This document shows, piece after piece, positions 15 to 60,312 of a DNA stretch of 64,000 bases; position 1 is the first letter of the stretch; every line of letters begins with the position of its first letter. The stretch is taken from the IMG/VR virus record IMGVR_UViG_3300010397_000007, positions 5,042 to 69,041 of that record. One strand, 5' to 3'. Under the pieces are notes generated by a model. The model ran no database searches, was not told the origin of the DNA, and worked only from the letters and a program-made list of their open reading frames with translations. The position numbers and the translations under genes are program-made. This DNA comes from a virus.

Positions 15-743
15 GTGAAGGCAACAGACGTTGACGACAAGGCTATGTCTCAACTAGCCCTCATGAACGACTACGGTTGGAATGTCTACGCTGGCGTTAA
101 TCCGCGCCCTCATTCCTGCTCTGACGTCGCCGAGATTGTGGCGCTCCACGTTGACGTTGACGGGCTGCCGAAGAAGGCAGATGTGCCGGAGCCTACGCTC
201 ATCGTTAATAGTGGACATGGGCTGCATCTTTACTGGGAGCTAGGGAAGGCTGTCCCGCCAAGCGAGAGCATAGCAGATATCAATCGCGGCCTAGCACAGG
301 CTGTTGGTGGGGATCCGCATTGTTGCGATATCACACGCATCCTTAGGGTGCCAGGGATGACGAATCAAAAGGAGCCGAAGAGGGTAGTGACGATCGAGCT
401 TGAGAGTGAGAAGAGATGGCGGGTTGAGGAGTTTGAGGGGCTGGGGATGGCGATTGACGATAGGGCCTCCGGCCCGACCCCTCACAAAGAGATGAGGGGG
501 CTTATTTTCGCCGACGCTATTAAGCGTGACTCTTATTTGCGGAGGGCTTGGAACGGAGGCTTTGGTGACGCGGCTTCAGACTCCCGCCACATCGCAATCC
601 TCCGTCTCCATGCGCTCGGATTCGATCAAAGCGTAATTGAGGAGTTAGTCGGTAGTCATCGTTGGTACAACACGAAGACGAAGAGAGTTACGCCCCGCGA
701 GAAGGCAATCGCTGACGTGAGAAGGGTGCTGGCGAAGGCATGA
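15..743 (+). CDS. RepB-like (RSF1010 RepB'/AEP superfamily) DNA primase; N-terminus possibly incomplete at window edge
   Basis: Motifs VDVD, VNSGHGLHLYW and DITRILRVPG typical of RepB_primase domains, followed by a small helical C-terminal domain. Confidence 0.8.
   Translation: MKATDVDDKAMSQLALMNDYGWNVYAGVNPRPHSCSDVAEIVALHVDVDGLPKKADVPEPTLIVNSGHGLHLYWELGKAVPPSESIADINRGLAQAVGGDPHCCDITRILRVPGMTNQKEPKRVVTIELESEKRWRVEEFEGLGMAIDDRASGPTPHKEMRGLIFADAIKRDSYLRRAWNGGFGDAASDSRHIAILRLHALGFDQSVIEELVGSHRWYNTKTKRVTPREKAIADVRRVLAKA
463..489 (+). repeat. Hairpin-CTCACA element copy 1 (inside primase gene)
   Basis: GGGCC-TCC-GGCCC gaccc CTCACA AAG. Confidence 0.9.
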
Positions 744-1282
744 AAGCTAGAAGAAAATACGCAAGAATCGGCGAGAAGGTTAGGGTTATCGCCAACAAGG
801 ATTTCGAGCGCTGCGGCTATCCACTAACTACTCTCGATATTCAGAACAAGTATTCGAAAGAGATTGCGGAAATGGTTGACAAAATAGGAGCGGCTATCGG
901 GGTCGATATTTGGTCGGATCGAAGTCGCCTAGGAAACTGTCTGCATAAAGGCTTAGCTTCCTATTTCCTTAATAAAGATAAGTTCGGTGGCCCCGAACGT
1001 AAGATTTACGAGCGTGACCGAGCCGAGTATGAATTCAATATTGCCGGAAAAGAGGGCATTGTCACTGCTCGAAAGTTTGTGAAGACAGGCACCCGCATCC
1101 CCGGACATAGCTATACGAGTTACGAGGGAGAACGGGATTACGATCCGCCGTATTTGCACAATGAAAAGACACATTGCATTTACACGCTAGAGATTGTTGG
1201 TGGGCCGCTATTTCCGGTGAACGTCCCCGCCGAAAACACAAGCTTAGTTTCTCTGTGGGGTTTTGGGCCGGAGGCCCTATAG
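740..1282 (+). CDS. hypothetical protein
   Basis: 180-aa ORF with ATGA overlap to the primase stop. Confidence 0.75.
   Translation: MKARRKYARIGEKVRVIANKDFERCGYPLTTLDIQNKYSKEIAEMVDKIGAAIGVDIWSDRSRLGNCLHKGLASYFLNKDKFGGPERKIYERDRAEYEFNIAGKEGIVTARKFVKTGTRIPGHSYTSYEGERDYDPPYLHNEKTHCIYTLEIVGGPLFPVNVPAENTSLVSLWGFGPEAL
1251..1277 (-). repeat. Hairpin-CTCACA element copy 2 (CCCACA variant)
   Basis: Top strand CTC TGTGGG gtttt GGGCC-GGA-GGCCC. Confidence 0.85.
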
Positions 1283-1383
1283 CAAAACATGTGCGATTTT
1301 GTTCCGCTAATTCTAATTCTAGTTTTCTTTGCAATTATGTTTTTACTTCCTCGCCCTAAAGGTAAAAGTAAAGGGCCAGATTC

Positions 1384-2862
1384 TTGGAGCTTTTAGTGGC
1401 AACCGCAACCTTAGATCGTATCTGGAGCCCTTATCAAGAGGCCATCTTCTCGTGGGCTGAGAAGGGTCAAGGCTCAGCAGTTATCGAAGCCGCAGCCGGC
1501 GCTGCTAAGAGTACGACGATCATTGAGGTAGCAAAACGTTTGCCATCCGATGACTCAATCCTCTTCGTCGCGTTCAATAAGCGGATCGCTGACGACCTCA
1601 AACGCAAACTCCCTGCCTACATCTGCGCGATGACCCTTAACGCCCTCGGCTTCCGTGCATGGCGATCCCACGTTGGTAAGAACGTTGAGGTAGATAGTTA
1701 CAAGGTCACGGCTCTCATCAAGCAGATGTCGGACGATTCAAGCAGTGACTTCAGGAGTGGGGTTAAGAAGCTCGTTGACTTAGCAAAGCTGATGGGCATC
1801 GTACCCAATGGCATCGATGCGGCAGGTTTGGTGGACGATGATACCGAGACTTGGCGTTGGCTGATCGATGAGTATGATATCTTCTTCGGCCCTAACGAGA
1901 AGAAGGATTGGGCCATCGCTCTCGCCCGTCGTGTCCTCGCTGAGAATATTCGTCTCGGCTCACAAAAGATCGATTTCAACGATCAACTCTATCTCCCCGT
2001 CATCTTCGGCGCAGAGTTTACAAAGTATGATTGGGTCTTTGCGGACGAGGCCCAGGATATAAGCAACCTACAACTCGAAATGTTGCGACGCTCCCTGGCC
2101 AAGAATGGCCGTTTCGTTGGCGTTGGCGATTCCGCGCAGGCCATTTACGGCTGGCGTGGGGCGAGCAGAGATGCGATTCCTAATTTGGGCCGCACGTTCG
2201 ACGCTCAGAAGTTTCCTCTCTCCATTTCTTACCGTTGTCCCCGTTCGGTAGTGGCGCTGGCTAGGAAGTATAGCCAGAAGATTGAGCCTTGGGAGAAGGC
2301 AGCGGATGGAAAGGTTGAGGAGTTAGAAAGCTGGGTTCCTTCACTATTCGGCCCCACAGATGTCATCCTCTGCCGTAACAACGCTCCCCTCGTCGCTATG
2401 GCGTTCAAGCTCATTCGGGCAGGGAAGCCCTGCAAGGTCTTAGGGAGAGACATTGGGACAGGACTCGTTTCTCTGGTAAAGAGAATGCGGGCTATTTCCC
2501 TTGACGATTTGAAGGCCAAGCTTGACGCTCACGTTGACAGAGAACGTAAACGTTTAGTTGACGAACCTGAGAAGATAGTCTCCCTCTTAGATCGCGTCGA
2601 TACGATACGGATATTCGTATCGGAGATGCCGTGGGGAACTAGCGTGGAGCAGCTTTGTTCAAAGATCGAGGGGATGTTCGCAGAGGATGGTCAAGAGGGG
2701 ATGTTACTCCTTAGCACAATCCACAAAGGGAAAGGAATGGAGTGGCCGCGAGTCTTCATTCTCGATCAACATTTAATTGGAATGCGAGAGCCGGAGCCTA
2801 ACCTTTACTACGTTGCGGTAACGCGGGCCATGAAAGAGCTTTACTTTATCAACTCCAAATGA
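1384..2862 (+). CDS. UvrD/Rep-like superfamily 1 ATP-dependent helicase
   Basis: SF1 motifs: AAAGAAKST (I), VAFNK (Ia), DEAQD (II), VGDSAQAIYGWRGA (III), YRCP (IV), STIHKGKGMEW (V), YVAVTRA (VI). Start may be a few codons downstream. Confidence 0.9.
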   Translation: MELLVATATLDRIWSPYQEAIFSWAEKGQGSAVIEAAAGAAKSTTIIEVAKRLPSDDSILFVAFNKRIADDLKRKLPAYICAMTLNALGFRAWRSHVGKNVEVDSYKVTALIKQMSDDSSSDFRSGVKKLVDLAKLMGIVPNGIDAAGLVDDDTETWRWLIDEYDIFFGPNEKKDWAIALARRVLAENIRLGSQKIDFNDQLYLPVIFGAEFTKYDWVFADEAQDISNLQLEMLRRSLAKNGRFVGVGDSAQAIYGWRGASRDAIPNLGRTFDAQKFPLSISYRCPRSVVALARKYSQKIEPWEKAADGKVEELESWVPSLFGPTDVILCRNNAPLVAMAFKLIRAGKPCKVLGRDIGTGLVSLVKRMRAISLDDLKAKLDAHVDRERKRLVDEPEKIVSLLDRVDTIRIFVSEMPWGTSVEQLCSKIEGMFAEDGQEGMLLLSTIHKGKGMEWPRVFILDQHLIGMREPEPNLYYVAVTRAMKELYFINSK

Positions 2863-3108
2863 CTGCCCCTCTTCAACAGCGACGACGACGCCAAGGCTAT
2901 CGAGCAGCTTGAACGCATCGCTCCCTATTGGAGAGAGCATTTATGGGACGGAAAGGTTATCGATCACATCTACGACATGCTTGACCGGCAGACGATGAAG
3001 AAGTGTTCGATTGAGAACTGTATGAATCCTGCGAGGAGAAGGGGAGTGTTGCTTTGTCAGAGTCATACGAAGTCACTAAGGAGACGAAATGTTAGAGGCT
3101 CTAAATGA
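2863..3108 (+). CDS. unannotated ORF in frame with the helicase stop (CTG start or readthrough); C-terminal Cys/His motif
   Basis: Reads LPLFNSDDDAKAIEQLERIAPYW...KKCSIENCMNPARRRGVLLCQSH...RGSK* and fills the gap to the next gene. Confidence 0.5.
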   Translation: MPLFNSDDDAKAIEQLERIAPYWREHLWDGKVIDHIYDMLDRQTMKKCSIENCMNPARRRGVLLCQSHTKSLRRRNVRGSK

Positions 3109-3358
3109 CGACCAATTTGTAGAGCTATTCGCCAAGGAGATGAAGCGGAGACAGCATGTTGGCTTGATCTGCTGCATCATGGACACCCAATCCCTGTTCA
3201 TCGGCTGCTACCCGAAGGAGTGGAAGGACATGAATAACATGCCCCTTCACGAGCAACTAAACCTACTCGCTGCTTACACCTCGATTACGGAAGAGAAGCA
3301 GAGATATGTGATCGATGAAGTACCGAAATTTGAAATAACCCGAGGAGGAAAGAAGTGA
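3089..3358 (+). CDS. hypothetical protein
   Basis: Strong RBS (AAGGAG), operon continuity. Confidence 0.75.
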   Translation: MLEALNDDQFVELFAKEMKRRQHVGLICCIMDTQSLFIGCYPKEWKDMNNMPLHEQLNLLAAYTSITEEKQRYVIDEVPKFEITRGGKK

Positions 3359-3696
3359 AACAAATTGTCTTACTGTTAACCCTATCTACCTTGGCGTTCG
3401 CAGCCGATACGCCGAAGCCTGAAAACAAGCCCGAGCCTACGGGCTACGCCATCCCCACAGCCGACTCCCTTGCCATTCGCGAGGCCCAGGTTGCTTACCT
3501 CCGCGCCAAAAGTGACACGACTCAAGCGCAGGCGAACGAGCAAGCCGCGCTCCAACGTCTTGTGGCCCTAGCTGCCGACGCAATAAAGCATGCCGGCGCT
3601 GACCCTGAGAAGTTCCAACTGAATGAAGAGGGCGGGAAGTTTGTTATTAAGGCGATCCCTCTCCCAGAGGCTCCGAAGAAAGAGGAAAAGAAATGA
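3355..3696 (+). CDS. secreted hypothetical protein
   Basis: GGAGG RBS; signal peptide MKQIVLLLTLSTLAFA-A. Confidence 0.75.
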   Translation: MKQIVLLLTLSTLAFAADTPKPENKPEPTGYAIPTADSLAIREAQVAYLRAKSDTTQAQANEQAALQRLVALAADAIKHAGADPEKFQLNEEGGKFVIKAIPLPEAPKKEEKK

Positions 3697-3932
3697 AATT
3701 CAATATCTCCCGCGTCATCTCAAATACCAAGGGCGTAACCCTTCTCCCCGTCTCCGAGAATGGCATCTACGCTGACTATTACGAGACGAAGACGGAGAAC
3801 AATATGGGCATTGACACTACCCAGATCGAGTTCTACGTCCGCAACGAAACGGGATGGTTCTTCAAGGACATCGAAGAAGTCAAGATTGCAACAATGTTGC
3901 TAATCGGTGACTTTATCGTGGAGAGGGCATGA
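3693..3932 (+). CDS. hypothetical protein
   Basis: ATGA-coupled ORF. Confidence 0.7.
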   Translation: MKFNISRVISNTKGVTLLPVSENGIYADYYETKTENNMGIDTTQIEFYVRNETGWFFKDIEEVKIATMLLIGDFIVERA

Positions 3933-4171
3933 CCGCTCTCTCCGATTACAAGACTCACAACGGCACCTCGCTCCAAGCCCTTGCTGATTTCCTACTTGAG
4001 CAATGTGCTCAGGGGGGTTGTCGGGGGATATTTCTCATCGTCAAGCCTGAGGGTGGGGTATCGATCGTGACCAATGTGAAGGGGCAATTGCTCCCCGATG
4101 TGTTGGATGGGATGGCCCTAGAGATGAGGATGTCGTTGGCTACGGAGAAGAAGGCAGAGGAGCCCTCCTAA
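3929..4171 (+). CDS. hypothetical protein
   Basis: ATGA-coupled ORF. Confidence 0.7.
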   Translation: MTALSDYKTHNGTSLQALADFLLEQCAQGGCRGIFLIVKPEGGVSIVTNVKGQLLPDVLDGMALEMRMSLATEKKAEEPS

Positions 4172-4172
4172 C

Positions 4173-5297
4173 GTGCAAGGCCCAATCGCGCAAGCCCTCT
4201 CGGCTAGACTGGGCCAACCCTCTCAGCATCCCCTCGTCTCTCAGGGATTCAGCCCTAACATCGTTGAACCCTTTGGGAATAATAGCCTCGGCATAATGAT
4301 CGTCGGCGAAGCCCCAGGGGAACAGGAAGACGATAGCGGCCAACCTTTTGCCCCGTGGGCTCCAGCCGGCTCCGTCCTCGCTGCCGCAATCCGTAGAGCT
4401 GGTTGCCGTCGTGAGCAATTCGTAATCACCAACGTCGTCCCTGCTAGGCCTCCGAAGAACTGGCTAGAAGGCGCTCCTTGGGAGGCGGAGGCGATTAGCT
4501 GGGGCCTTGAGCATCTTGACGAGGCTGTGAGGGTGTATAAGCCTCGCGCCATAGTGGCGCTAGGTAGCATTGCGAGCCGGGTAACGACGGGATTAAGCGG
4601 CAGTAAGTTAGGCGTATCCCATCTCAGCGGCTACGCCATTCCATCCCCTCGATATAGCATCCCCGTCATCCCCTGCTTCCATCCATCCTTCCTCCGTCGT
4701 GGCGCGATGGCTCTGCTTGGAGTCATGGTTAATGCTCTAAGGAAAGCGAAGAAGGTCGCGGCGGGGCAGATTATATGCGTAGAGCCCCCGGTGGATAGCC
4801 CTCCTGAAGGCTACATCTTGCATCCTGACCCCAGCGTTGCTGAGTCATTTTTGCGTGACGCCAAAGAAGCAAAATATATTTCCTTCGATATTGAGACCCC
4901 TTATTCGACAGATGAGGAGAGCGCGGAAGAAGTAGAAGAAGAACATCGCATAAAGTCGATTCAGTTCTCTTTGGCGCAAAGCAGTGGAATATTTATGCCT
5001 TGGCGTGACGATTTCATTCCCATTGCGAAAGAAATCTTGGCATTACCGAGACCGAAACTTGGATGGAATATTTGGCATTTTGACAACCCAGTCCTTTATG
5101 AGCACAGTTGCAAAATCGCTGGCGAACAACACGACTTGATTTGGGCTTGGCATCACTTACAGCCCGATTTGCCGAGAGGGTTGCAGTTTGCTGCCGGCCA
5201 GTTGGGTTGGCCGTATCCATGGAAGCATCTTAGCGGCTCCGATCAGGAATTTTACGGAATTGTGGACGTGGAGGTACTCCAATGGATGGTTGCTTAA
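4173..5297 (+). CDS. DNA polymerase A N-terminal half: family-4 uracil-DNA-glycosylase-like domain plus 3'-5' exonuclease (SPO1-type architecture)
   Basis: IVGEAPG, ITNVV..RPP.N, IVALG, HPSF (UDG-F4); ExoI FDIET, ExoII GWNIWHFD, ExoIII YGIVD. Confidence 0.85.
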   Translation: MQGPIAQALSARLGQPSQHPLVSQGFSPNIVEPFGNNSLGIMIVGEAPGEQEDDSGQPFAPWAPAGSVLAAAIRRAGCRREQFVITNVVPARPPKNWLEGAPWEAEAISWGLEHLDEAVRVYKPRAIVALGSIASRVTTGLSGSKLGVSHLSGYAIPSPRYSIPVIPCFHPSFLRRGAMALLGVMVNALRKAKKVAAGQIICVEPPVDSPPEGYILHPDPSVAESFLRDAKEAKYISFDIETPYSTDEESAEEVEEEHRIKSIQFSLAQSSGIFMPWRDDFIPIAKEILALPRPKLGWNIWHFDNPVLYEHSCKIAGEQHDLIWAWHHLQPDLPRGLQFAAGQLGWPYPWKHLSGSDQEFYGIVDVEVLQWMVA

Positions 5298-5752
5298 TAC
5301 CTCTTGGCCGAAAAGGTTTTGCAATTGTTGATTCAGAAGATTACGAACGTGCTATGCAATACAGTTGGGTTATGGTTCCAAAACGTCGTCGCCTATACGC
5401 AAGAAGAGAATGGCGCATTGGAAATAGGCTGCGCCGTTACGAGTATCTACATAGTTTTATTATGCGTTCACGCGAGCAAATAGATCACCGAAATCTTGAC
5501 GGACTTGATTGTAGAAAAGCTAACCTGCGTTTTGCGACCGCGCAACAAAATGCGGCCAATAAGGAGCGGCGTCCCGGAGGTTCCAGTAAATACAAGGGAG
5601 TGTATTGGTCAAAGTCAATAAACCGTTGGGTTGCGCGACTAAGAACTAAGCACCTCTGTTCATCTACAAACGAAGAAGATGCGGCGAGAGCATACGACGA
5701 GGCAGCCCTAAAAATGTATGGGGAGTTTGCGAGGACAAATGGGTTTGTTTGA
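5282..5752 (+). CDS. HNH-AP2 homing endonuclease
   Basis: LHSFIM..IDHRNLDGLDCRKANLR (HNH); SKYKGVYW...AARAYD.AA (AP2). Confidence 0.9.
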   Translation: MDGCLIPLGRKGFAIVDSEDYERAMQYSWVMVPKRRRLYARREWRIGNRLRRYEYLHSFIMRSREQIDHRNLDGLDCRKANLRFATAQQNAANKERRPGGSSKYKGVYWSKSINRWVARLRTKHLCSSTNEEDAARAYDEAALKMYGEFARTNGFV

Positions 5753-7187
5753 GCGAATGCAAAAGGCCAACATTTATAGGGGCTATTTGCAACATGTGGT
5801 TAAATTAAATCCTGTGTTAGAGCGGGTTTCTGCTAGAGGCATGCCTGTAAATCAGGAAGGTTTTGATTCTGTTGTCGCCCGTCTCCGTGGTGATTACATG
5901 GCGGAGAAGGAGAAGATGCAAAGCCTCGTGCCTGACGAGATTAAAGCAAAGAAGGTTTACAAGAAGACCCCAAAGGCAAGGCTCGAAGAGTGTACACAAG
6001 TTGACGGAGTTTGGGTACGTACTCTACCTTGGACTCCTTCGAACAAGGGCCTCTGCGCTTACATTCGCCACCGTGGCCTCAAGGTTCCAAAGAACTTGAA
6101 GACCGAGAAGGACACGACGGCGGCGATCGAGATTGCCCGTCTCTCGCGAAAGACGAAGGATCCACTCTATGGAGCCGTGATTCAATACCGTAAGGCTCAA
6201 ACCGTCCTAACCAACCATGTAAAGAATTGGAAACCTGGGCCTGACCAACGAGTTCATACATCTTTCTATTTCGACCCTGCTACAGGCCAACTATCCTCTC
6301 GCCGTCCGAACGTTCAAAACGCCCCAAAGCACGACGATCCCGAGTTCGGAGGCTACGCCAAAGTTTTCCGTTCCATGATTAAGGCTCGTGAGGGGCATAC
6401 GATTCTTGAGTTCGACTTCAAGTCCTTCCACGCTCAGACTCTCGCTTTCGAGAGTGAAGACAAGGACTACCTCCGTCTCGCCAAGCTTGACATCCATTCC
6501 TTCCTCGCATCTCATCTCGTCCACGACCCGAAGGCCGGAGGCTGTCTCGCTTGGTCGGATGATGAGCTTCGAGAGTACCTAGCTTGGATCAAGAAGAATC
6601 ACAAGTTCGTCCGTGACTATAAGGCAAAGCGAGCCATTCTTGGCTACGGCTTTGGCATGGGCTATCGCAAGCTCTACGACATGAATCGTGAGTCCTTCGA
6701 CGGGCAGAAGGACGCCAAGAATACCCTCGACATGCTTGACTCTGTCTTTCCCGTGACGAAAAAATGGCGGGAGACGATACGGCATAAGGCTAACGATCAA
6801 GGTTACCTGATCTCCCGTCACGGGTACATTCGTTACTTCTGGGAAGTCTTCAGAGAGAGGAACGATGGCTGGACGCCAGGAGATGACAGCGAGGCCGCTG
6901 TAGCGTTCCTGCCGGCGAATGACGCCTTCGGGGAGATTAAGGATCGAATGCTTACGATCGCAGAGCGGGGACTCGACGAACGCTATGGCCTCATCAATAA
7001 CGTCCACGACTCCCTTTTGTTCGAATGCCCCGACCCTTTAGTCGAGGAGGCGGTTGGCACAATCAAGCCCCTCATGGAGAGCCGCTCGCAAGTCCTTATT
7101 TCTCCTAAGGTTGCACCGCTGGGTTTAAGCGTTGAAGTAGATGTCCAAGCAGGCCGTGACTGGGCCAGCCTGCGGGGAGTCGCGTAA
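5739..7187 (+). CDS. DNA polymerase A polymerase domain (C-terminal half, atypical motifs)
   Basis: TGQLSS..PNVQN, motif A DFKSFH, DIH, motif B KRAILGYGFGMG, motif C VHDS. ATG 5739 has a GAGGA RBS. Confidence 0.88.
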   Translation: MGLFERMQKANIYRGYLQHVVKLNPVLERVSARGMPVNQEGFDSVVARLRGDYMAEKEKMQSLVPDEIKAKKVYKKTPKARLEECTQVDGVWVRTLPWTPSNKGLCAYIRHRGLKVPKNLKTEKDTTAAIEIARLSRKTKDPLYGAVIQYRKAQTVLTNHVKNWKPGPDQRVHTSFYFDPATGQLSSRRPNVQNAPKHDDPEFGGYAKVFRSMIKAREGHTILEFDFKSFHAQTLAFESEDKDYLRLAKLDIHSFLASHLVHDPKAGGCLAWSDDELREYLAWIKKNHKFVRDYKAKRAILGYGFGMGYRKLYDMNRESFDGQKDAKNTLDMLDSVFPVTKKWRETIRHKANDQGYLISRHGYIRYFWEVFRERNDGWTPGDDSEAAVAFLPANDAFGEIKDRMLTIAERGLDERYGLINNVHDSLLFECPDPLVEEAVGTIKPLMESRSQVLISPKVAPLGLSVEVDVQAGRDWASLRGVA

Positions 7188-7326
7188 AATATATGTATGC
7201 CCTCTCCCTCAGACACGTACCCCCACGATATCCCTGCGGACTTCTTCGACCCTTTGAGGACGTTATACCATCCTCCAGACGAAGCGTGTTCGCCTGACGA
7301 AATTGAGACGAAAAGGAAGATTTATG

Positions 7327-7356
7327 TTGACAATAGTGTAACGCTTAGAGTACCTT
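7327..7356 (+). promoter_or_regulatory. sigma70-like promoter
   Basis: TTGACA-18 nt-TACCTT just upstream of ORF 7369. Confidence 0.45.
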
Positions 7357-7368
7357 TAGGTTAACTTA

Positions 7369-8430
7369 ATGGACAACAAATTGAAAGCGAATTTGACGAA
7401 GGCTGCGGCCACCAGCGCCATGCAAGAGATGGAAGACCGAGTAGCCCACTATAAAGCTAAGGCAGAATTGGCCGAAAGTATACTCGGCAAATTGCGAAAA
7501 GAGCGTGGTGGACTCCGCGAGATGATGTCCCAATTAACCTCCGCAGTGGCCGCCGCCGATCCTTGGGATCGCGTCAAATATTACCCAGGTGACCCTTCCC
7601 GTACGCCCGTGTCCGCCGTTGTCAAACTTTCCGATTGGCATATCGGGGAAGTCATTGAGAAGGGTGAGACGGAAGGTTTCGGAGAGTTCAATTGGGCGAT
7701 CGCACAGAAGCGAGTGTTCTTTATTGCCGAGAAGTTGATCGAGTGGACAAACATGCATCGTATTGCTGGGTTCCCGATTGACGAACTTGTAATCCTCTCG
7801 GAAGCCGACCTCGTCAGCGGGAATATCCATTACGAGCTTGAAGTCACAAATGAATTCCCGGTCACGGTGGCGACAGCGAACGCCGGCCTACTCCTCGCCG
7901 AATTCACCTCCCGCGTGGCGGGGCATTTTAAGCGCGTAGTGCTCTCTGAAATATCTGCTGATAACCATGGTCGCCTGACACGCAAGAATCAAGCCAAGCA
8001 GGGTGGCCTTAATAACTACTCCTTCCTCGCTCACACGATTGCAAATCAAAGTTTAGTGAAGCATGAGAATGTGAAGATCCTTGCCCATGAGGGAATTAAG
8101 GGACTCGTCTCAATTCAGAAGAAAATATTCCTGACTCAACATGGCCATGGGATCCTTAGCGCCTTGGGCATCCCATATTATGGGCTGGAAAGAGCCCGCG
8201 CCAGGGAAGCTGTCAAACGCTCCCGCACGGACAAAGAGTTCGATTACATCTCAACGGCGCACTATCACGTACCGGCCATTCTCAGCGAGAACATTTACAT
8301 GAATGGCTCGTTGTCAGGGACGACGGAGTTCGATCACATGCAGGGTCGTCACGCGAAGCCATCACAAGTGAGTTTCATGGTTCATCCGAAGCATGGGCCA
8401 TTCGATTTCACAGCTTGGAAACTTTCATAA
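7369..8430 (+). CDS. calcineurin-like metallophosphoesterase
   Basis: SDWHIGE, ADL, DNHGR, QHGHG and AHYH motifs; N-terminal coiled coil. Confidence 0.8.
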   Translation: MDNKLKANLTKAAATSAMQEMEDRVAHYKAKAELAESILGKLRKERGGLREMMSQLTSAVAAADPWDRVKYYPGDPSRTPVSAVVKLSDWHIGEVIEKGETEGFGEFNWAIAQKRVFFIAEKLIEWTNMHRIAGFPIDELVILSEADLVSGNIHYELEVTNEFPVTVATANAGLLLAEFTSRVAGHFKRVVLSEISADNHGRLTRKNQAKQGGLNNYSFLAHTIANQSLVKHENVKILAHEGIKGLVSIQKKIFLTQHGHGILSALGIPYYGLERARAREAVKRSRTDKEFDYISTAHYHVPAILSENIYMNGSLSGTTEFDHMQGRHAKPSQVSFMVHPKHGPFDFTAWKLS

Positions 8431-8541
8431 TGCTCCGTGACCAACTTCACATCCTTCGCGAACGCAAGCGCCTTGGTGAGAGCGATCGCAAGTTAGCAAC
8501 CTACTTCGGATGCTCGGTGGGGTTCATAAAGGAACTGCTCC

Positions 8542-8766
8542 TTGCAATCGAAAAGAGGTAGCGGGGCTGAAGCGTTAAGTAATGTCGTTATCGGTTGGAT
8601 CATAAATCTGATCGTTTTCAAATATATCCCACCGTTCCTAGGCTTCAGACTCTCAATGAAGCAGAACGTCGTGATGGGAGTTATTGGAACTGTTGTATCA
8701 CTGCTACGCAGCTACGCAATTAGACGTACCTTCAATCGCCATGAAAAAGATATTCGACAAAATTAA
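8542..8766 (+). CDS. small two-TM phage membrane protein
   Basis: MQSK..S..EA..NV.IG...VS..RSY.IRR.FN pattern common in phages. Confidence 0.7.
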   Translation: MQSKRGSGAEALSNVVIGWIINLIVFKYIPPFLGFRLSMKQNVVMGVIGTVVSLLRSYAIRRTFNRHEKDIRQN

Positions 8767-8965
8767 CGCAAGATTTGAAGCCCCGCCGATTGTCTCTGGC
8801 CCAAACGTTTTCAAGGTAGCGGAGTATGCCAAGAGTGTTGGGTTAAAGTACAGCGCTGCCCGCAATCGTCTCCACAAGCTTGTTCAACAAGGAATCCTTC
8901 GTAAGGTCAGAATCCCTGGCGAGTACGGCCCCCGCGAAGGCTACGAATACATCGCAAAGGACTGA
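8741..8965 (+). CDS. winged-HTH DNA-binding protein
   Basis: VAEYAKSVGLKYSAARNRLHKLVQQG; start at MKKIF. Confidence 0.6.
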   Translation: MKKIFDKINARFEAPPIVSGPNVFKVAEYAKSVGLKYSAARNRLHKLVQQGILRKVRIPGEYGPREGYEYIAKD

Positions 8966-8968
8966 CTA

Positions 8969-9193
8969 GTGGACGGACGCGGGGAGATATTTCTGTGGCG
9001 ATTGGTCGTGAGGCAAGCGCAAATAGATGCCCGAATTGGCGAAGGCCATCAACGCTATCTCGCTCGCCGTTGGCTTACGACTACTTCGCGTTCTTTCGTG
9101 GCAGTCTGCGCTTACGCTGGGCTTAACAGGGCGGAGACGGAAATCTTACAAGAGAAGATGAGGAAGAAATGGAACCCACACAAATCATCGTAG
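8969..9193 (+). CDS. hypothetical protein
   Basis: LWRLVVRQA..DA...A.RWL...F..VC.YAG pattern seen in phage small proteins. Confidence 0.65.
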   Translation: MDGRGEIFLWRLVVRQAQIDARIGEGHQRYLARRWLTTTSRSFVAVCAYAGLNRAETEILQEKMRKKWNPHKSS

Positions 9194-10160: not shown

Positions 10161-10168
10161 GCTGCCTT
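10146..10168. terminator. hairpin at the convergence of the replication and late operons
   Basis: AAGGCAGC-cttttaa-GCTGCCTT. Confidence 0.55.
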
Positions 10169-10821: not shown

Positions 10822-10845
10822 TCCTAATTATACCGTAAAACTAAA

Positions 10846-10872
10846 GCGGCTCCGCCGCGACCCCTCACAAAG
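10846..10872 (+). repeat. Hairpin-CTCACA element copy 3
   Basis: GCGGC-TCC-GCCGC gaccc CTCACA AAG. Confidence 0.9.
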
Positions 10873-10893
10873 GAAGGGCCACGCGCATCATCT

Positions 10894-10920
10894 TCTTGTG
10901 AGGGTTTGCCCCGGAGGGGC
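10894..10920 (-). repeat. Hairpin-CTCACA element copy 4
   Basis: Top strand TCT TGTGAG ggttt GCCCC-GGA-GGGGC. Confidence 0.9.
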
Positions 10921-10932
10921 TATAGCGTCTGC

Positions 10933-11289
10933 TCAAATAACATCAAACTCCCTCTCCCCTGAATCCCACCAAGACTTACGATCCCCTGGGCCCAATACTA
11001 AGCAACCCTCGCTGGCATTGTGAGTCTTGTTATCGCCGTGGATCCGAAATGCGCTTCGTCCAAAGGTGTTAGTCCCGTCGCAAGGGATGAGGTTAATAGT
11101 GAAAGGGCCGAGCTTAGGATGATGATATGGCTCTCCGTCCATCCTCCATCGCCCTCTTGGTAGTGGCCCGTAGTCTTTCGTGGCTTCCCATGAAGGATTA
11201 TTCCTCCCGAGCCCGCGACCGGAGTAACCTTGAGCAAAGAAGGCTCCGTCACGAAGCAGTTCTCCAGTCTTTTGTTGGTAGATAAACAT
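10933..11289 (-). CDS. DUF2778/Tlde1-family L,D-peptidase; putative endolysin
   Basis: GYSG, GPLPRG.W, GRSAFRIHGD and ASEGCL (His/Cys dyad). Confidence 0.85.
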   Translation of the reverse strand: MFIYQQKTGELLRDGAFFAQGYSGRGLGRNNPSWEATKDYGPLPRGRWRMDGEPYHHPKLGPFTINLIPCDGTNTFGRSAFRIHGDNKTHNASEGCLVLGPGDRKSWWDSGEREFDVI

Positions 11290-11292
11290 TTC

Positions 11293-28691: not shown

Positions 28692-28766
28692 GTAGGCTTA
28701 TCCTTTTCAGGAGGCGGAGGAGTAGCCTACGGAGTCCTGTACGTTCTAATTTTAACAGACGCTAAA

Positions 28767-28793
28767 GGTGCTCCGCACCAACCCCTCACAGAA
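28767..28793 (+). repeat. Hairpin-CTCACA element copy 5
   Basis: GGTGC-TCC-GCACC aaccc CTCACA GAA. Confidence 0.9.
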
Positions 28794-28916
28794 AGAAGGG
28801 AGGCTTTAGTCAATGGCACTCTAGGGCTATTTACCATAAATTTGGTCTCCTATACCCTTTCAAGGCATTCTCCCCCTTTGTCTCAAAATTCCTAACGCAT
28901 CCTTTGGAGTCGCTAG

Positions 28917-29588: not shown

Positions 29589-29795
29589 ATGATGAAAGCA
29601 AGAGTTAGATTTGCGCTATTCGGCTTTGACTTTCCCTCGTTAGAACAATTCGACTTTATCAAAAGTTTCTGTGAGACAAAAAAGTGGGACTGGCAACTCC
29701 TAAGTACATACCAAGCGTTGACCGTAAGATCAGCTTGGAAGAAATCACAAAAGAGTAAGCCCGATCCTAAGCAACAGGGGACGCTCTCTCTGTGA
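29589..29795 (+). CDS. hypothetical protein
   Basis: 68-aa ORF downstream of the methyltransferase. Confidence 0.45.
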   Translation: MMKARVRFALFGFDFPSLEQFDFIKSFCETKKWDWQLLSTYQALTVRSAWKKSQKSKPDPKQQGTLSL

Positions 29796-30291
29796 GGGTT
29801 TGAGGCGGAGCCTCTTGGACGTCAGCAAGAACTTTATCGCGCTCGGGGCCTAAGCGGCGATGGGTTTCGGGGACTAGGGGCCGACGAAGTATTACACATT
29901 CCTGACATGTGACTTCGTATCCTGAGCGTTTGACAATTTCAATATAGTCGGTGAGTTGCTTGGGAACGGCAATGTAAGCCTCCAACGCCCCAGCCGCCGC
30001 GCCCTCGTAAGCGAGGATCCGTTCCATGCCCACGACTGCTGCGTAGATGTCAGGCCCTTTCGCTTCGGGATTATGGATGAAGGGATCAATGACCGCAACG
30101 ACTGCGACCTTCCCTGTCAAGGAACCAATCAGTTCCTCGCCCTTATCCGATACCACAGTCTCAACTCCTGGCGCTCTCCAACCATGTACGACTTCAAGGT
30201 CAGCGGGGAGATAGCACCAACGCCATTTATCAAGCTGCTCAATATCCTGTTCATCGACAGGGCGGAAGGTCATCTTTGAGAAGCTGCTCAC
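29767..30291 (-). CDS. GNAT-fold virion assembly protein (T7 gp13-like position)
   Basis: MTFRPVDEQD, LIGSL, KRSGYE; lies between nozzle and ejection genes. Confidence 0.5.
   Translation of the reverse strand: MSSFSKMTFRPVDEQDIEQLDKWRWCYLPADLEVVHGWRAPGVETVVSDKGEELIGSLTGKVAVVAVIDPFIHNPEAKGPDIYAAVVGMERILAYEGAAAGALEAYIAVPKQLTDYIEIVKRSGYEVTCQECVILRRPLVPETHRRLGPERDKVLADVQEAPPQTLTERASPVA
29788..29814 (-). repeat. Hairpin-CTCACA element copy 6
   Basis: Top strand CTC TGTGAG ggttt GAGGC-GGA-GCCTC. Confidence 0.9.
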
Positions 30292-39088: not shown

Positions 39089-39292
39089 ATGAAGATTGCT
39101 ACGATCGTTGTCGTTGCTTTTCTGTTAGGGATGGCGCTGGGGCCGACGCCGAGCGCGAAGGCTGGGGTATCAGGAACAATTACGGTGACTGAAGTGGATC
39201 CGGGGATTACAAGCGTTTATGGGAGTACCGTTGTAGGCTTTTCGTGCGCTAAGGGTGATAAGAATATGCATTGTTACATCGCGACAGAATAG
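39089..39292 (+). CDS. small secreted protein (moron)
   Basis: GGAGG RBS, signal peptide, VVGFSC...CYI Cys pair; antisense to the late operon. Confidence 0.7.
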   Translation: MKIATIVVVAFLLGMALGPTPSAKAGVSGTITVTEVDPGITSVYGSTVVGFSCAKGDKNMHCYIATE

Positions 39293-39298
39293 ACAATG

Positions 39299-39325
39299 AG
39301 GGCTCCGCCCTGAAGGCTCACAAAG
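39299..39325 (+). repeat. Hairpin-CTCACA element copy 7
   Basis: AGGGC-TCC-GCCCT gaagg CTCACA AAG. Confidence 0.9.
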
Positions 39326-39396
39326 AGATGGGGCGGCATATTCCCCAAACGAGACATAAATGCACGTTCCGCGTAATATGCCAAAACGTCCATTCT

Positions 39397-39423
39397 CTTT
39401 GTGAGGGTTTGCAGCGGAGCTGC
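39397..39423 (-). repeat. Hairpin-CTCACA element copy 8
   Basis: Top strand CTT TGTGAG ggttt GCAGC-GGA-GCTGC. Confidence 0.9.
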
Positions 39424-39608
39424 TATAGCGAAACGGCTTGCTCTACGCAATCCTTATGGAAGAGGAAGTATTGTCCATCACGGACGACAAGGGTTCGTTG
39501 TAAAGGGTCGTCAATGTTGAGGAAGCACCAAATGCAACGTGTGCCGTCGTGCTTAATATAGAGATCGAGCGCGATCGTGCGCCAGTCTTCGGCTATTTGC
39601 ACTGACAT
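39423..39608 (-). CDS. small Zn-binding hypothetical protein
   Basis: CIWC...FHKDC. Confidence 0.6.
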   Translation of the reverse strand: MSVQIAEDWRTIALDLYIKHDGTRCIWCFLNIDDPLQRTLVVRDGQYFLFHKDCVEQAVSL

Positions 39609-44752: not shown

Positions 44753-45144
44753 TAGTTAATGTCCTTCTGAACACCCATGAGGATTACTTTGATCTCGGGA
44801 GAAATTTCTGCATCGCTTTCCAAGTCGTCGAGGCTCTCTGCGTAGAATTGCCCGACGCGATCACGGAGTTCCTGCATCTCCGCCTGAGCGGCTTCGTTAC
44901 TTGCTTCGGATTTCGCTACGCCTAACTCTGTAATCGGAGCGATACCGTTTTGTTGAAGGAGAGCGTCAGAGGCGCGGTCAGCACGGTTACGTTCTGCATC
45001 GATTCTGTCACGTTCGTGGTCGAGGAGATGTTCTAGTTTAGTTATGTATTCTTCACGTTGACGTAACTGGAGTGTCATGCCTTCGAGTTGAGCTTGGAGG
45101 CGAGCAATGTCGATACGCAGTTGACTTTTGGTAATCCAACGCAT
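44752..45144 (-). CDS. coiled-coil hypothetical protein
   Basis: Heptad-rich ORF coupled to the portal gene. Confidence 0.7.
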   Translation of the reverse strand: MRWITKSQLRIDIARLQAQLEGMTLQLRQREEYITKLEHLLDHERDRIDAERNRADRASDALLQQNGIAPITELGVAKSEASNEAAQAEMQELRDRVGQFYAESLDDLESDAEISPEIKVILMGVQKDIN

Positions 45145-45151
45145 TACAATG

Positions 45152-45178
45152 AGGCCTCCGGCCTAACCCCTCACAGAG
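45152..45178 (+). repeat. Hairpin-CTCACA element copy 9 (unpaired)
   Basis: AGGCC-TCC-GGCCT aaccc CTCACA GAG. Confidence 0.9.
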
Positions 45179-45609
45179 CAAGTAAAGCCCTCTGTACTCG
45201 AACGGCGGGGATAAAATACTGCTAGCGGCTTGGCTCGTTTGATGAACTTGGTAAACCGATAGCGGTAAAGATATCCGCCGCCAGTCATGGGCAAATTTGG
45301 AAGTAGCCCAATTTCAAGCTCGCCGCGCATTTCGTTGTGCGGAGCAACATGCCAAGTGATTCCAGCCCAGCTAATTCCTAACAGAGGCGTGCGGATAAAC
45401 CATTCGTCAGCACCCCGGCGCTCAAATGCAAAATAGGCGTGCAGACAAATCCAACGATGCTTTTTAGGCACCCACTTAGACCAGAACCAACGCGCAGGCC
45501 AAGAGCTTCGTTCTTCATGCAACTGTTTTTGTAGAACATCTTTCTCGTCCCATGCCTTTTTAAGTTCTACTTCCAATTCGTCCCTATCTACGTCCTTTAG
45601 GTAGTCCAT
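45163..45609 (-). CDS. hypothetical Trp-rich protein
   Basis: ORF between terminase and portal. Confidence 0.6.
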   Translation of the reverse strand: MDYLKDVDRDELEVELKKAWDEKDVLQKQLHEERSSWPARWFWSKWVPKKHRWICLHAYFAFERRGADEWFIRTPLLGISWAGITWHVAPHNEMRGELEIGLLPNLPMTGGGYLYRYRFTKFIKRAKPLAVFYPRRSSTEGFTCSVRG

Positions 45610-48476: not shown

Positions 48477-48500
48477 GGATCAATTGTAATGGATGCGACA

Positions 48501-48527
48501 GGGGCTCCGCCCCAAACCCTCACAAAG
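48501..48527 (+). repeat. Hairpin-CTCACA element copy 10
   Basis: GGGGC-TCC-GCCCC aaacc CTCACA AAG. Confidence 0.9.
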
Positions 48528-48601
48528 GAATGATCGGGGAAAGCTATACTTGACCGTAGTCTAGATAGAGTAAAGCACGATTGACCGTAGGGCAGCCGTC
48601 T

Positions 48602-48628
48602 CTTTGTGAGATCTTGCGGCGGAGCCGC
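48602..48628 (-). repeat. Hairpin-CTCACA element copy 11
   Basis: Top strand CTT TGTGAG atctt GCGGC-GGA-GCCGC. Confidence 0.9.
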
Positions 48629-48930
48629 TACCGGGAGTAAGGTTTCTGAATGGACATCTCATTCCGTTCCCAGAATGTATGCCACCCGACTCCCTTTTAG
48701 CGCTTTGGCAAGCCGACGATTTCCGCCTTGAGTGACAGCACCTTCATGATGCGATCTCGGCTCTACAGGGTGCACTGTTTGCGGCCAAACTTGGTCGAGA
48801 AGGCATAGTCCTCGCTACTCCGATAGCATCTCAGCAACGGTATCCGTCTGAAGGTAATCGTTTCGCTATCCCTATACGTCCTACCGCCCCATTGTGGCGG
48901 CTGCTCTGAATGTGAGCTACTTCCCGAACC

Positions 48931-51212: not shown

Positions 51213-51268
51213 AGTCGAAACGTGGCCTAATTGCCACGTCTCAGCGTTAGGCGCTGACTGATGAGACT
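51213..51268 (+). ncRNA. type II hammerhead ribozyme 1 (predicted cleavage after GUC at 51240)
   Basis: AGTC-GAAA-CGTGGC ctaatt GCCACG-TC-TCAGCG ttagg CGCTGA-CTGATGA-GACT; full catalytic core and three stems. Confidence 0.9.
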
Positions 51269-51284
51269 AAAGGGAGGTTTTCTG

Positions 51285-51536: not shown

Positions 51537-51590
51537 AGTCGAAACTCGGAGCAATCCGAGTCCTAGCATTACGTGCTAGCTGATGAGACT
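51537..51590 (+). ncRNA. type II hammerhead ribozyme 2 (predicted cleavage after GUC at 51562)
   Basis: AGTC-GAAA-CTCGGA gcaa TCCGAG-TC-CTAGCA ttacg TGCTAG-CTGATGA-GACT; stems covary relative to copy 1. Confidence 0.9.
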
Positions 51591-51637
51591 AGATCTCCTA
51601 GATCATTTGAGAGACAATTTGAAAATGGAGTGCCAAT

Positions 51638-53369: not shown

Positions 53370-53804
53370 ATGGGCAATTTTGGCGCTGCTTTTAGTCGCC
53401 TACGTGCCGAAATGACATCCACCATGAGTAAACGCGAGCTTGACGTTCTTGAGGCGATCGGACAGGGAAGATCGAATGTTCAGATTGCTGAAGAGTTAAA
53501 CATGACTATTGACACAGTCAACAAGCATATCAAGAGTCTCAAGGCAAAGACAGGGCGAAGGACGTTGATTGCCCTTGCTAATCATGTCAGGGGGGAGGAG
53601 TTTGAGCCGGCGCATCCTGCCCTCAGCCCTCGTGAGCAATGGATCGCCGCCCTCATAGTGGCTGATGGAACGAATAAGGAGATTGCGGAGGCTTCGAACA
53701 TTAGCCCACAGACGGTTAAGAATCATCTGACCAATATGTTTAACAAGTTAGGGGTGTGGTCAAGGTTGGAGCTGGTGACGAGGTTGAGAACAACCAATAA
53801 TTAA
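53370..53804 (+). CDS. tandem double LuxR-type HTH regulator (start possibly MSKRE at 53424)
   Basis: SKRELDVL..IGQG.SN.QIA.EL....TV..H and LSPRE...G.NKEIA...IS.QTVKNHL..MF.KLGV.SR.EL. Confidence 0.85.
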   Translation: MGNFGAAFSRLRAEMTSTMSKRELDVLEAIGQGRSNVQIAEELNMTIDTVNKHIKSLKAKTGRRTLIALANHVRGEEFEPAHPALSPREQWIAALIVADGTNKEIAEASNISPQTVKNHLTNMFNKLGVWSRLELVTRLRTTNN

Positions 53805-56031: not shown

Positions 56032-57000
56032 CTAAAGGAGACGAAGGTAGCGGGTGTCCTTGAAGGTGCCTTGCTTCTCCATTAATTTTGCGGTTACTGC
56101 TGTTTTGAGGAGATCGCTGGTGAAACGGCGGCTCTTTCCGCAAAGCTTCATTGCTTCGGAGAATGTGAGAGGTTGGTTGAGGGGAAATTTGAGGATTAAT
56201 TCCTTTTGAAGTTTCGTTAGGAGTTCGACTCCGGTAAGAGGTTTGTAAGCGATCGGTAAGCCTGTGTACTCGTCAAAGATTCGCTCTAGTCTCCATGGGC
56301 CAATATCGCCAAAGCCTCGACGTGCTGCACGGACTACTACCTGATCCTCTTTATGGGAGTTCTCGAACCCGATACGGATGTCAGATTGGTTGGTTAGCGC
56401 GAGGGAACCGGAAACGTTTTGCATCCAAGTGAGGACTGGAGTAGAGAGGTCTTCGAGTGGCGCTCGTGGAGCTTCTTCGTTATCTTTACGGAGATGATGA
56501 AGGAAGATTGTTGTTGCGCCGTATTTGCCTAATTGTTTCATCCACGTCATACGTAAGGCTGCGGCATGGGACTCGGTCTCGGCCTTGGGATCCATGTAGC
56601 GCAAGGTATCGATTACGATGAGCTTTGGTGAGTAGAGTTTTGCGTCAGCTACTATTTGATCCGCTGTGGGAAATTCCAGCCGGCGTAAGTTTTCAGGAAT
56701 ACCAGGGAGACCGATGGCTCCAGATATTTCACCACACTTAATATAGAACTCACGAAGATTGTTCTCATAGTCCGCATAGAGCACTGTGCCGGGGCTGATG
56801 TTGAAGCCTAGAAAAGGGATTCCAGCGGCAATACAAATACTGAGTTGCATGGCGTAGGGTGTTTTGCCTTGACCACTATCGCCAGCAAGGAGGCAGAGAC
56901 TTTGTGAGGGGATGAAGTCTTCGACGAGATAGGAGATTCTATCTAGTTTGTCGATAGCTTGACTAACTTCTGACGGAGAAAGAGAGTAGGATTTTGACAT
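56032..57000 (-). CDS. RepA-like (AAA_25, RecA/DnaB-type) replicative helicase with C-terminal wHTH
   Basis: YLVEDFIP, LLAGDSGQGKT, VLYADYEN, LIVIDTL, FLHHLRK, GSLAL. Confidence 0.85.
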   Translation of the reverse strand: MSKSYSLSPSEVSQAIDKLDRISYLVEDFIPSQSLCLLAGDSGQGKTPYAMQLSICIAAGIPFLGFNISPGTVLYADYENNLREFYIKCGEISGAIGLPGIPENLRRLEFPTADQIVADAKLYSPKLIVIDTLRYMDPKAETESHAAALRMTWMKQLGKYGATTIFLHHLRKDNEEAPRAPLEDLSTPVLTWMQNVSGSLALTNQSDIRIGFENSHKEDQVVVRAARRGFGDIGPWRLERIFDEYTGLPIAYKPLTGVELLTKLQKELILKFPLNQPLTFSEAMKLCGKSRRFTSDLLKTAVTAKLMEKQGTFKDTRYLRLL

Positions 57001-57597: not shown

Positions 57598-57612
57598 AGG
57601 CTAGGGACGATG

Positions 57613-57639
57613 AGCGCTCCGCGCTAAAACCTCACAGAA
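57613..57639 (+). repeat. Hairpin-CTCACA element copy 12
   Basis: AGCGC-TCC-GCGCT aaaac CTCACA GAA. Confidence 0.9.
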
Positions 57640-57655
57640 GAAGGGGAGACTTGAG

Positions 57656-58054
57656 ATGAGATTAAGCGAAGCAATTCGATTGAACGGAATGACGTTGCCG
57701 CAGGGGTTTGGTGCGGACTCTGTCGTTAATCCTAATGCCCCTTGTGCCATTGGTGGAGCATTGCTTGCCGTTGGGAAAGATCTTACCGCGCTCGATTGGA
57801 TGATGTACGGAGAGAACAACGTGTATAGCGTTTTTCGTCTAGAGTGGCCATGGATCGCATCTGTACGACCCGTCATGTGCCCCGCGTGCTCTGAAGCTCG
57901 CGGCGGAGTGGACTATGTAATCTTCCATCTGAATGATGGACATAGATGGACACGTAATCAGATAGCCGACTGGGTTGCCTCGATAGAACCTCTCGACATT
58001 GAGGTTGAGGCTGTGGATCAAGATGAACTCCTTCTCTGTGAGAAGGCACGATGA
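57656..58054 (+). CDS. conserved phage hypothetical protein
   Basis: MRLSEAIRL, CAIGGA, HLND.H.WTR.QIADWV. Confidence 0.75.
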   Translation: MRLSEAIRLNGMTLPQGFGADSVVNPNAPCAIGGALLAVGKDLTALDWMMYGENNVYSVFRLEWPWIASVRPVMCPACSEARGGVDYVIFHLNDGHRWTRNQIADWVASIEPLDIEVEAVDQDELLLCEKAR

Positions 58055-60062: not shown

Positions 60063-60260
60063 CGTTCTTAACCCTTAACTGTCCCAAATATTTGAAATTT
60101 GGGCAGAATTTTAAGGGTGTATGAAGGTAGGTTACCTTCGGGCTACGGCGGAGAATTGAATAAATCCTGTTGATTCTACGGCCACGTCGTAGCGCGGAAG
60201 GGGTATAAATGGGTGATTTTGGGTTAGTTCTTGGCCCAAGGATTTGCCCAAACGCTTAAG
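60063..60260. other. putative attP region
   Basis: Non-coding DNA after int with repeated CCCAA(A)/TTTGGG arm-type-like boxes near 60083, 60098, 60218, 60235 and 60247. Confidence 0.45.
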
Positions 60261-60285
60261 GGATGAATCGAGAGGGCATCTCTTT

Positions 60286-60312
60286 CTCTGTGAGGTTTTG
60301 TGGCGGAGCCAC
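60286..60312 (-). repeat. Hairpin-CTCACA element copy 13
   Basis: Top strand CTC TGTGAG gtttt GTGGC-GGA-GCCAC. Confidence 0.9.

Follow-up and report, generated by a model that had tools for sequence, protein, structure and literature searches.

Repeated mini-hairpin elements in a 69-kb temperate phage genome, candidate start signals for a RepB'-like primase

Where does DNA synthesis start on a phage genome that encodes a plasmid-type primase and carries a small hairpin element thirteen times, on both strands and in facing pairs? In this work we focused on a window of 64,000 nucleotides, bases 5042-69041 of the 69,041-bp virus record IMGVR_UViG_3300010397_000007, in which an initial annotation had pointed out this element. 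The record has 123-bp identical ends and is rated complete, and it comes from a soil phage (69 kb), podovirus-like and temperate, whose lineage is uncultured. Coordinates are those of the window unless marked as genome coordinates. The element invites comparison with the plasmid RSF1010, whose primase RepB' starts DNA synthesis at ssiA and ssiB, two inverted repeats of 40 nt located on complementary strands, as laid out in the relevant part of PMC8567376. By analogy with this system, we consider on balance that the phage elements would be single-strand initiation (ssi) signals, that is, fixed starts of DNA synthesis, for a RepB'-like primase of the phage.

The complete record contains 13 copies of an element of about 40 to 51 nt (Table 1). 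With all copies aligned in one direction, it begins with a weakly conserved (G)ACG(C)TATA, followed by a 5-bp stem ending in C, a TCC loop and the complementary stem, then by R-A-A/C, a CC(T/C)CACA box and a purine run (AAGAGA and similar), an A-rich spacer preceding the box. The loop is invariant and reads GGA on the opposite strand, on which loop and closing pair together give GCGGAGC in nine copies and CCGGAGG in four. The stem sequence varies among copies yet always pairs: 65 of 65 cells are Watson-Crick, without any G-T pair, and 17 cells, found in four of the five pairs, were changed on both sides, a covariation matched by none of 500 shuffles. On the GGA strand, the 5' tail is conserved and pyrimidine-rich (the complement of AAACCCTCACAAAGAGA) and contains an invariant TGTG, and the 3' tail has a G at +5 in 12 of the 13 copies and a GTC within 12 nt in eight; a GTC lies 5-9 nt behind the hairpin in 8/13 copies. 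The corresponding GAC upstream of the hairpin on the other strand is present in 8/13 copies against a background of 13.9% (P = 9e-5, uncorrected for 64 triplets). Computed DNA folding energies made no distinction between the GGA and TCC strands, and the extra stability of GNA loops is taken from the literature, not from these energies. In element 463 only, the box and the next bases (CCCCTCA...TGAGGGG, 478-499) form a second hairpin, of 7 bp, beside the mini-hairpin.

Every search method split these copies cleanly from the background. Taken alone, the hexamer CTCACA shows no enrichment (38 matches versus 28.5 expected, with 6 of 100 shuffles reaching 38), and among the 14 perfect hairpins of the genome with a 5-bp stem and a TCC loop, the box is present in 13. 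A position-weight scan gave 13 matches at 21.5-29.2 bits, the next one scoring 16.2 bits and lacking the hairpin, and a covariance model, run over 69,200 bases on both strands, gave 13 matches at 49.4-59.2 bits followed by one of 9.9 bits (E 1.9). The genome therefore contains no degenerate copy by the covariance model, whether between 12 and 28 kb, where a search for such copies had been suggested, in the 17.8-kb gap between elements or in the 5 kb left of the window. No 'missing' pair was recovered near 20 kb either: the highest-ranking box-like site there (19175) lacks a hairpin and is rejected by the covariance model.

The 13 sites lie at the places and in the orientations first reported, the original coordinates being the low-coordinate edge of each element. 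Along the genome the orientations follow the order + - + - + - + - + + - + -, giving six adjacent +/- couples with their boxes inward, 74, 124, 127, 814, 1047 and 2699 bp apart, and leaving the copy at 45152 alone unpaired, as the initial annotation had stated. Six convergent pairs arise with P = 5.7e-4 when the places are kept and the orientations shuffled, and with P = 1e-5 when both are random. The facing boxes had all been given as CTCACA; they point inward in all six pairs, but one of them (element 1241-1291, minus strand) reads CCCACA. The gaps between pair midpoints on the circular map are 10013, 18408, 10070, 9204, 10398 and 10948 bp. The regular interval of about 10 kb noted earlier thus stands, with midpoints 9.2-10.9 kb apart except at one gap of 18.4 kb; this gap, earlier put at 20 kb, amounts to 17.8 kb between elements. 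A smallest midpoint gap of at least 9.2 kb has P = 3.3e-4 on a circular and P = 1.35e-3 on a linear map. The statistic holds when pairs are drawn only from the 97 gene junctions (P = 2.6e-4), so that the even spacing is no artefact of gene layout.

Placement takes no account of the direction of transcription, as previously remarked, since 7 of the 13 elements aim against the genes downstream and six run with them. Four of the 13 copies extend over sequence that credibly codes for protein: the linker of the primase, the final codons of ORF (open reading frame) 740-1282, the end of ORF 29767-30291 and, at 45,152, both neighboring genes. An ATG occurs within 60 nt after the element in eight copies, where it opens at least 30 codons in four cases and 3-8 codons in the other four; a clear ribosome-binding site and a real gene follow only the element at 57,613. 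With a single real gene start in this survey, the purine run is part of the element and not a set of translation starts. It also occurs in both copies of the distant relative L139 (see below). From 0, the cumulative GC skew climbs monotonically to about +1990 over the genome, whatever the gene strand, whereas the AT skew tracks gene orientation; the GC skew suggests a strand asymmetry caused by replication in one dominant direction.

On the same replicon as the elements, the phage encodes a protein that sequence and model place in the RepB' family of primases. This protein matches the Pfam family RepB_primase (PF16793) at 29.2 bits, the cut-off being 24.3, and the sole matches in a sequence search of the PDB were the two RSF1010 RepB' entries, with weak E-values. 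The AlphaFold model (mean predicted local distance difference test score, pLDDT, 78.2) consists of a catalytic domain, disordered residues 175-190 (pLDDT below 50) and a helical bundle, and as modeled it is built to the RepB' plan, in which a disordered linker joins the catalytic domain to a helix bundle. Element 463 encodes precisely this disordered stretch. Foldseek ranked RSF1010 RepB' first and second (3h20, E 5.6e-10; 3h25_A, template modeling score 0.69), as the full-length protein and then the catalytic domain with initiator DNA, and a cyanophage PrimPol domain third. The residues D76, D78 and D134 are invariant in all five primase sequences aligned.

In the sections of PMC8567376 that describe the RSF1010 signals, the ssi hairpin spans nt 7-27, RepB' binds the six nucleotides 5' of the hairpin, and an 11-12-nt DNA primer is made from T32 within a GTG that lies 3' of it; replication is reported there to proceed in leading-strand mode only (PMC8567376; also the corresponding part of PMC6925257). 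The pertinent section of a review of natural DNA mini-hairpins gives CCGAAGG for ssiA and GCGGAGC for the N4 promoter, and notes one at the G4 origin (PMC13037366). The phage system appears to match RSF1010 in primase fold and domain plan and, as far as the published description goes, in a signal of about 40 nt, a C-GNA-G mini-hairpin cap, a sequence-specific 5' tail and a G-T-N a few nucleotides behind the hairpin. Inverted copies on complementary strands are also common to both; they were found here in the six convergent pairs of the phage and in one pair of L139. There is about one pair per 10 kb in the phage, as there is one pair per plasmid in RSF1010, which measures roughly 9 kb. The phage differs from RSF1010 in its stem of 5 bp, compared with about 9 bp, in having 13 copies over 69 kb, some inside genes, instead of one pair inside oriV beside RepC-bound iterons, and in being a temperate tailed phage with its own family-A polymerase. 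A 14-kb Acidithiobacillus plasmid considered as an IncQ stand-in proved not to be IncQ-like. G4-type primase-dependent complementary-strand origins and plasmid ssi are likewise structured single-strand signals that place the start of a primase, but they use the host primase DnaG and longer multi-hairpin structures. A large plasmid may carry several of these signals.

Relatives were sought by primase-guided scans of IMG/VR, JGI metagenomes and 185,579 species genomes, which resulted in 174 loci, L138 and L139 alone being useful; by a generalised-motif scan of 160 loci (1.61 Mb) reached through more distant RepB-like primases; and in a large protein collection, which supplied four informative primase relatives. 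L138, a 1.35-kb metagenome contig with a primase 91% identical to that of the phage, carries an identical element at the same place. L139 is a 4.4-kb contig whose primase is 38% identical; apart from this gene, an integrase-like ORF with 23% identity is all that it has in common with the phage. Its two copies of the element converge at a distance of 688 bp, one lying inside the primase gene in a non-homologous place, a loop of the catalytic domain after the DxD motif, and the other directly after the primase stop codon. Both copies have TTC loops (GAA on the other strand), a shifted box AAAAAC(A/C)CACA followed by GAAGAGA, and the upstream GAC (GTC on the GGA/GAA strand). In P0002 and P0003 from the protein collection, the primases are 63% and 61% identical to that of the phage. 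The linker is the least conserved part of the primase, yet both retain G-S-A...P-H-K, compared with A-S-G...P-H-K here. These peptides are those expected from a flipped, compensated stem, a TCC loop and a CCTCACAAA box, and an element is predicted in both relatives: it would encode Ser (TCC) between Ala/Gly codons that are each other's reverse complement, and then Pro-His-Lys (CCT CAC AAA). P0004, from the same collection, is encoded on a contig of 68.5 kb, the one full-length relative.

Among the 160 loci the generalised motif was found only in L138, in L139 and, once and in a different form, in L082, with none in shuffled loci. A megablast search with 20 kb of the genome against GenBank phages returned no close relative, nor did a search of IMG/VR with the capsid protein. 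The contigs listed from one sequencing run (X2) over 28,700-48,699 are short and of low depth, and the bins around 45,152 have no coverage. The phage with the best capsid match in GenBank (MW202554.1, 35% identical, 44 kb, same gene layout) lacks both this type of primase and any repeated family of hairpins. The results for P0002/P0003, L138, L139, MW202554.1 and the 160 loci point to an element that travels with a small clade of stand-alone primases and changes with the primase. Two pattern scans of IMG/VR gave a perfect hairpin in 3 of 55 loci, each with a different box context, and in 0 of 29, respectively, and the motif is absent from IMG/VR in these scans apart from such chance hits. The restart points on both strands that the initial annotation envisaged gain from these comparisons, in that a RepB'-like primase is encoded, its gene holds element 463 and relatives keep the element; the priming itself we infer. 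A stricter de novo search of the loci for repeated hairpins returned unrelated repeats in L081 and L167 only, and missed L139, the two copies of which differ by an offset. L081, with a distant RepB-like primase, has its own repeated hairpins at 13766 and 15249, a direct pair with a GAAG loop and a covarying stem; L167, also with a distant RepB-like primase, has an inverted hairpin pair at 2255 and 2339, 84 bp apart.

The elements and the primase could work together as follows. The functional strand would be the one with the GGA loop, which when unpaired would fold into a 13-nt C-GGA-G mini-hairpin. The primase would bind the pyrimidine-rich 5' tail and the base of the hairpin and make a short primer, starting either in the 3' tail (RepB' uses a GTG 4-6 nt behind its own hairpin) or at the TGTG that is invariant in the 5' tail, and the family-A polymerase of the phage would extend this primer in the direction called forward. 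Synthesis from one site would pass the facing partner and peel off the strand with the partner's hairpin. Because the partners face each other, they would presumably expose each other in this way and a pair would fire in both directions. With pairs about every 10 kb, a fork coming from either side could restart synthesis on the displaced strand at hard-wired places, and single-stranded stretches would be kept to about 10 kb. The first opening might occur without an initiator protein, comparable to the extrusion of N4 hairpins from supercoiled DNA. We propose only tentatively, as a possibility that may well not hold, that the whole 69-kb genome would be copied in an IncQ-like leading-strand (strand-displacement) mode, by a sequence-specific DNA primase starting only at mini-hairpins, with six two-way modules about 10 kb apart replacing random Okazaki priming and the module in the primase gene as the likely primary origin.

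Several observations weigh against primase start signals or limit the support from relatives. The hairpin measures 13 nt instead of the 21 nt of ssiA, a geometry closer to that of N4 promoters, and RSF1010 carries its signals once, not 13 times. The GTC is missing in five of the 13 copies, none of the pairs has iterons or tandem or direct repeats next to it, and the family scans revealed no RepC-like initiator. Box-box pairing in the close pairs could hide the tail. The monotonic GC skew fits one dominant fork, not many two-way origins; with such a one-directional skew, perhaps only the six minus-oriented copies routinely prime the displaced plus strand, and their plus-oriented partners act at initiation. 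With regard to relatives, the 45-nt identical run at the L138 element is one of eight runs of at least 25 nt, the longest being 137 nt, and with several such runs shared L138 is too close to show extra constraint. The L139 pair is partly a matter of ascertainment, as the contig was found via its primase, and a random 4.4-kb stretch of the phage would contain a pair an estimated one time in three. Three cultured phages with a distant RepB-like domain within a large primase protein have no such repeats, which limits the link between element and primase to a small clade.

We nevertheless prefer primase signals over the other explanations, because readings at the RNA level leave features unexplained, a promoter lacks its polymerase and selfish repeats lack a transposase. 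An action in RNA, which we hold to be unlikely, would have the inverted copies of one transcript form long duplexes or local hairpins and serve as processing (RNase III-like), stabilising or terminating signals that divide long operons. Most copies do lie at gene junctions, the wide pairs bracket cassettes (a methyltransferase and the integrase block), and single strands through the close pairs fold so that the boxes pair into a stem with a mini-hairpin on either side (z-scores -2.2 to -3.95). What is conserved, however, is the local 5-bp hairpin with its invariant loop and not arm-to-arm pairing, the 65 stem cells are free of G-U pairs, the members of wide pairs are separated by 0.8-2.7 kb, one element has no partner, and copies occur within coding sequence (the primase linker and the L139 catalytic domain). 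Nor do the elements look like intrinsic terminators (a GC-rich hairpin with a T-run): most copies have no T-run in their flanks, and of the four elements in the scanned stretch (1-20,000) one has a T-run and only the reverse of element 10846 scores as terminator-like. Rfam has no match to the element, and action at the RNA level accounts neither for the 10-kb spacing nor for the joint occurrence of element and primase.

Slightly less probable still are single-stranded hairpin promoters of the N4 type, on which an undiscovered phage RNA polymerase would bind the extruded template GGA hairpin and start RNA about 11 nt downstream, the convergent pairs yielding sense and antisense transcripts. The geometry is that of N4 early promoters, with a 5-bp stem, a GGA/GAA loop and a closing G:C, in the portions of PMC13037366 and PMC4496689 that deal with them; the latter also describes extrusion from supercoiled DNA at physiological density, melting of the non-template hairpin only by the host single-stranded DNA-binding protein, and the requirement of the virion polymerase for a template C at +1. 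As in N4, judging from that description, the phage element probably functions on one extruded strand. In the phage, however, the analogous +1 is a template G (non-template C) in 11 of the 13 copies. N4 carries a few of these promoters, at one end of its genome, whereas the phage copies occur on both strands, in all modules and inside genes, in paired and evenly spaced sets. The element at 57613, which lies 30 nt ahead of an ATG with GGGGAG, and the six copies running with genes would suit promoters, but 7 of the 13 would give antisense RNA, in two cases arising within the primase gene or crossing it, and one L139 copy sits within the primase catalytic domain. For several virion ORFs, one of 1498 aa among them, no fold is assigned, and these could in principle hide a polymerase. 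None was found with Pfam and PHROGs on 50 ORFs, and a six-frame search for PF00940 had no match, although its control was likewise silent and absence is thus not proven. Three of the largest ORFs of unassigned function (1498, 1219 and 948 aa) had no sequence match in the PDB, the ESM Atlas offered no clue to the 1498-aa ORF, and its homologues look like modular fibre proteins. Host-type intrinsic terminators are also present.

Equally improbable in our view are selfish or architectural repeats, that is, REP/REPIN-like doublets, ends of miniature inverted-repeat transposable elements or cruciform sites for a structural or recombination protein, none of them involved in priming. The element is a short repeat, and like REP/REPIN it forms palindromic units in inverted doublets (74-127 bp apart) between genes, with inverted copies flanking accessory cassettes. 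Unlike them it has an invariant loop, an asymmetric box and copies in coding sequence, and no Y1/RAYT transposase was found in a six-frame search with PF01797, whose control matched in 6 of 14 genomes. The flanks are not in common and no target duplications were seen, the even spacing is unexpected from selfish spread, and the motif is absent from IMG/VR save for chance matches; the stems, moreover, diverged with compensation, which argues for long selection in place. Ordinary promoters and stoperators, which the initial annotation had already argued against, are set aside because only the element at 57613 precedes a ribosome-binding site and a long gene, and because the stems covary, which is needless for a duplex-binding repressor.

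In the open-access literature searched we found no case of a phage combining a RepB-type primase with hairpin or ssi signals, and a primase-signal system would be an unusual way of copying a phage genome. If confirmed, it would mean that the IncQ-type mode of plasmid replication scales to large genomes through repeated modules, and that lagging or displaced-strand synthesis starts at fixed, readable places. It would also offer a compact primase-signal pair, a 271-aa enzyme and a 40-nt site, easy to test in vitro.

Table 1. Positions of the hairpin elements and of replication genes in the window; bits are covariance-model scores.
Feature	Position	Strand	Remarks
RepB'-like primase gene	1..743 (genome 4969-5784)	+	271 aa; starts 72 nt left of the window; contains element 463
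Element 1a (hairpin 463-475)	449..499	+	inside primase gene, encodes disordered linker peptide; 59.2 bits
Element 1b (hairpin 1265-1277)	1241..1291	-	last codons of ORF 740-1282; box CCCACA; 54.2 bits
Family-A DNA polymerase in two ORFs	4173..7187	+	UDG-like N-terminal part 4173-5297; polymerase part 5718-7187
Element 2a	10832..10882	+	intergenic; 52.6 bits
Element 2b	10884..10934	-	74 bp from 2a, hairpin start to hairpin start; 54.2 bits
Element 3a	28753..28803	+	upstream of methyltransferase-like gene 28997-29575; 57.4 bits
Element 3b	29778..29828	-	overlaps 3' end of ORF 29767-30291 (-); 49.4 bits
Element 4a	39285..39335	+	between head-module genes, opposing their direction; 52.1 bits
Element 4b	39387..39437	-	124 bp from 4a; 59.0 bits
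Unpaired element	45138..45188	+	18-nt gap between two minus-strand genes near portal and terminase; 50.8 bits
Element 5a	48487..48537	+	intergenic; 57.5 bits
Element 5b	48592..48642	-	127 bp from 5a, upstream of gene 47817-48476 (-); 49.6 bits
AAA_25 (RecA/KaiC-like) ATPase, candidate replicative helicase	56032..57000	-	PF13481 E 6.3e-22; primase/helicase PHROGs
Element 6a	57599..57649	+	30 nt before ATG of ORF 57656-58054, GGGGAG precedes ATG; 51.9 bits
Element 6b	60276..60326	-	downstream of integrase gene, aimed back into it; 57.7 bits

The genome around the elements is laid out in blocks. On the plus strand, a PD-(D/E)XK nuclease and a Sak4-like ATPase lie left of the window, and the replication genes further include the RepB-like primase, a UvrD-like helicase, the split family-A polymerase, an exonuclease and a deoxynucleoside monophosphate kinase. 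The two polymerase ORFs are split by an HNH endonuclease ORF (5282-5752), and a second HNH ORF is located at 9783-10160. A strong intrinsic terminator with a 12-bp stem (10144-10170) marks the place where plus- and minus-strand genes meet, which indicates that host-type termination is in use. A long minus-strand block then runs from tail to terminase, with very large fibre-like ORFs, a P22 gp10-like hub, an SU10-type adaptor, the major head protein, the portal and the terminase. It is followed by an early/lysogeny region with a LuxR-type regulator, the AAA_25 ATPase and the integrase. The comparison of this ATPase with RSF1010 RepA was not significant (E 0.54). ORF 53370-53804, considered as a phage sigma factor, is instead a LuxR/GerE-type tandem helix-turn-helix protein.

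The gene-poor stretch between the late and early blocks holds two tandem repeats, a 21-nt unit in 2.4 copies (48984-49033) and the 11-nt unit CCGGCTCGATT in three copies (50014-50046), which could be operators or iterons; neither adjoins a hairpin pair. Two direct copies of a hammerhead-ribozyme-like core, 322 nt apart on the plus strand (51214-51269 and 51537-51591), flank a small Cys-rich ORF. Rfam returned nothing at these copies, even at E up to 1. Their layout is AGTC-GAAAC, stem, GTC, stem, CTGATGA-GACT, which we presume to be a hammerhead core by its likeness to the consensus motifs, and both stems covary between the copies. Finally, the ESM Atlas model of the 948-aa virion ORF (30787-33633, minus strand) resembles P22 gp10-type 'phage stabilisation' proteins, and most of its nearest structural clusters come from Acidobacteriota, which hints at this phylum for the host.

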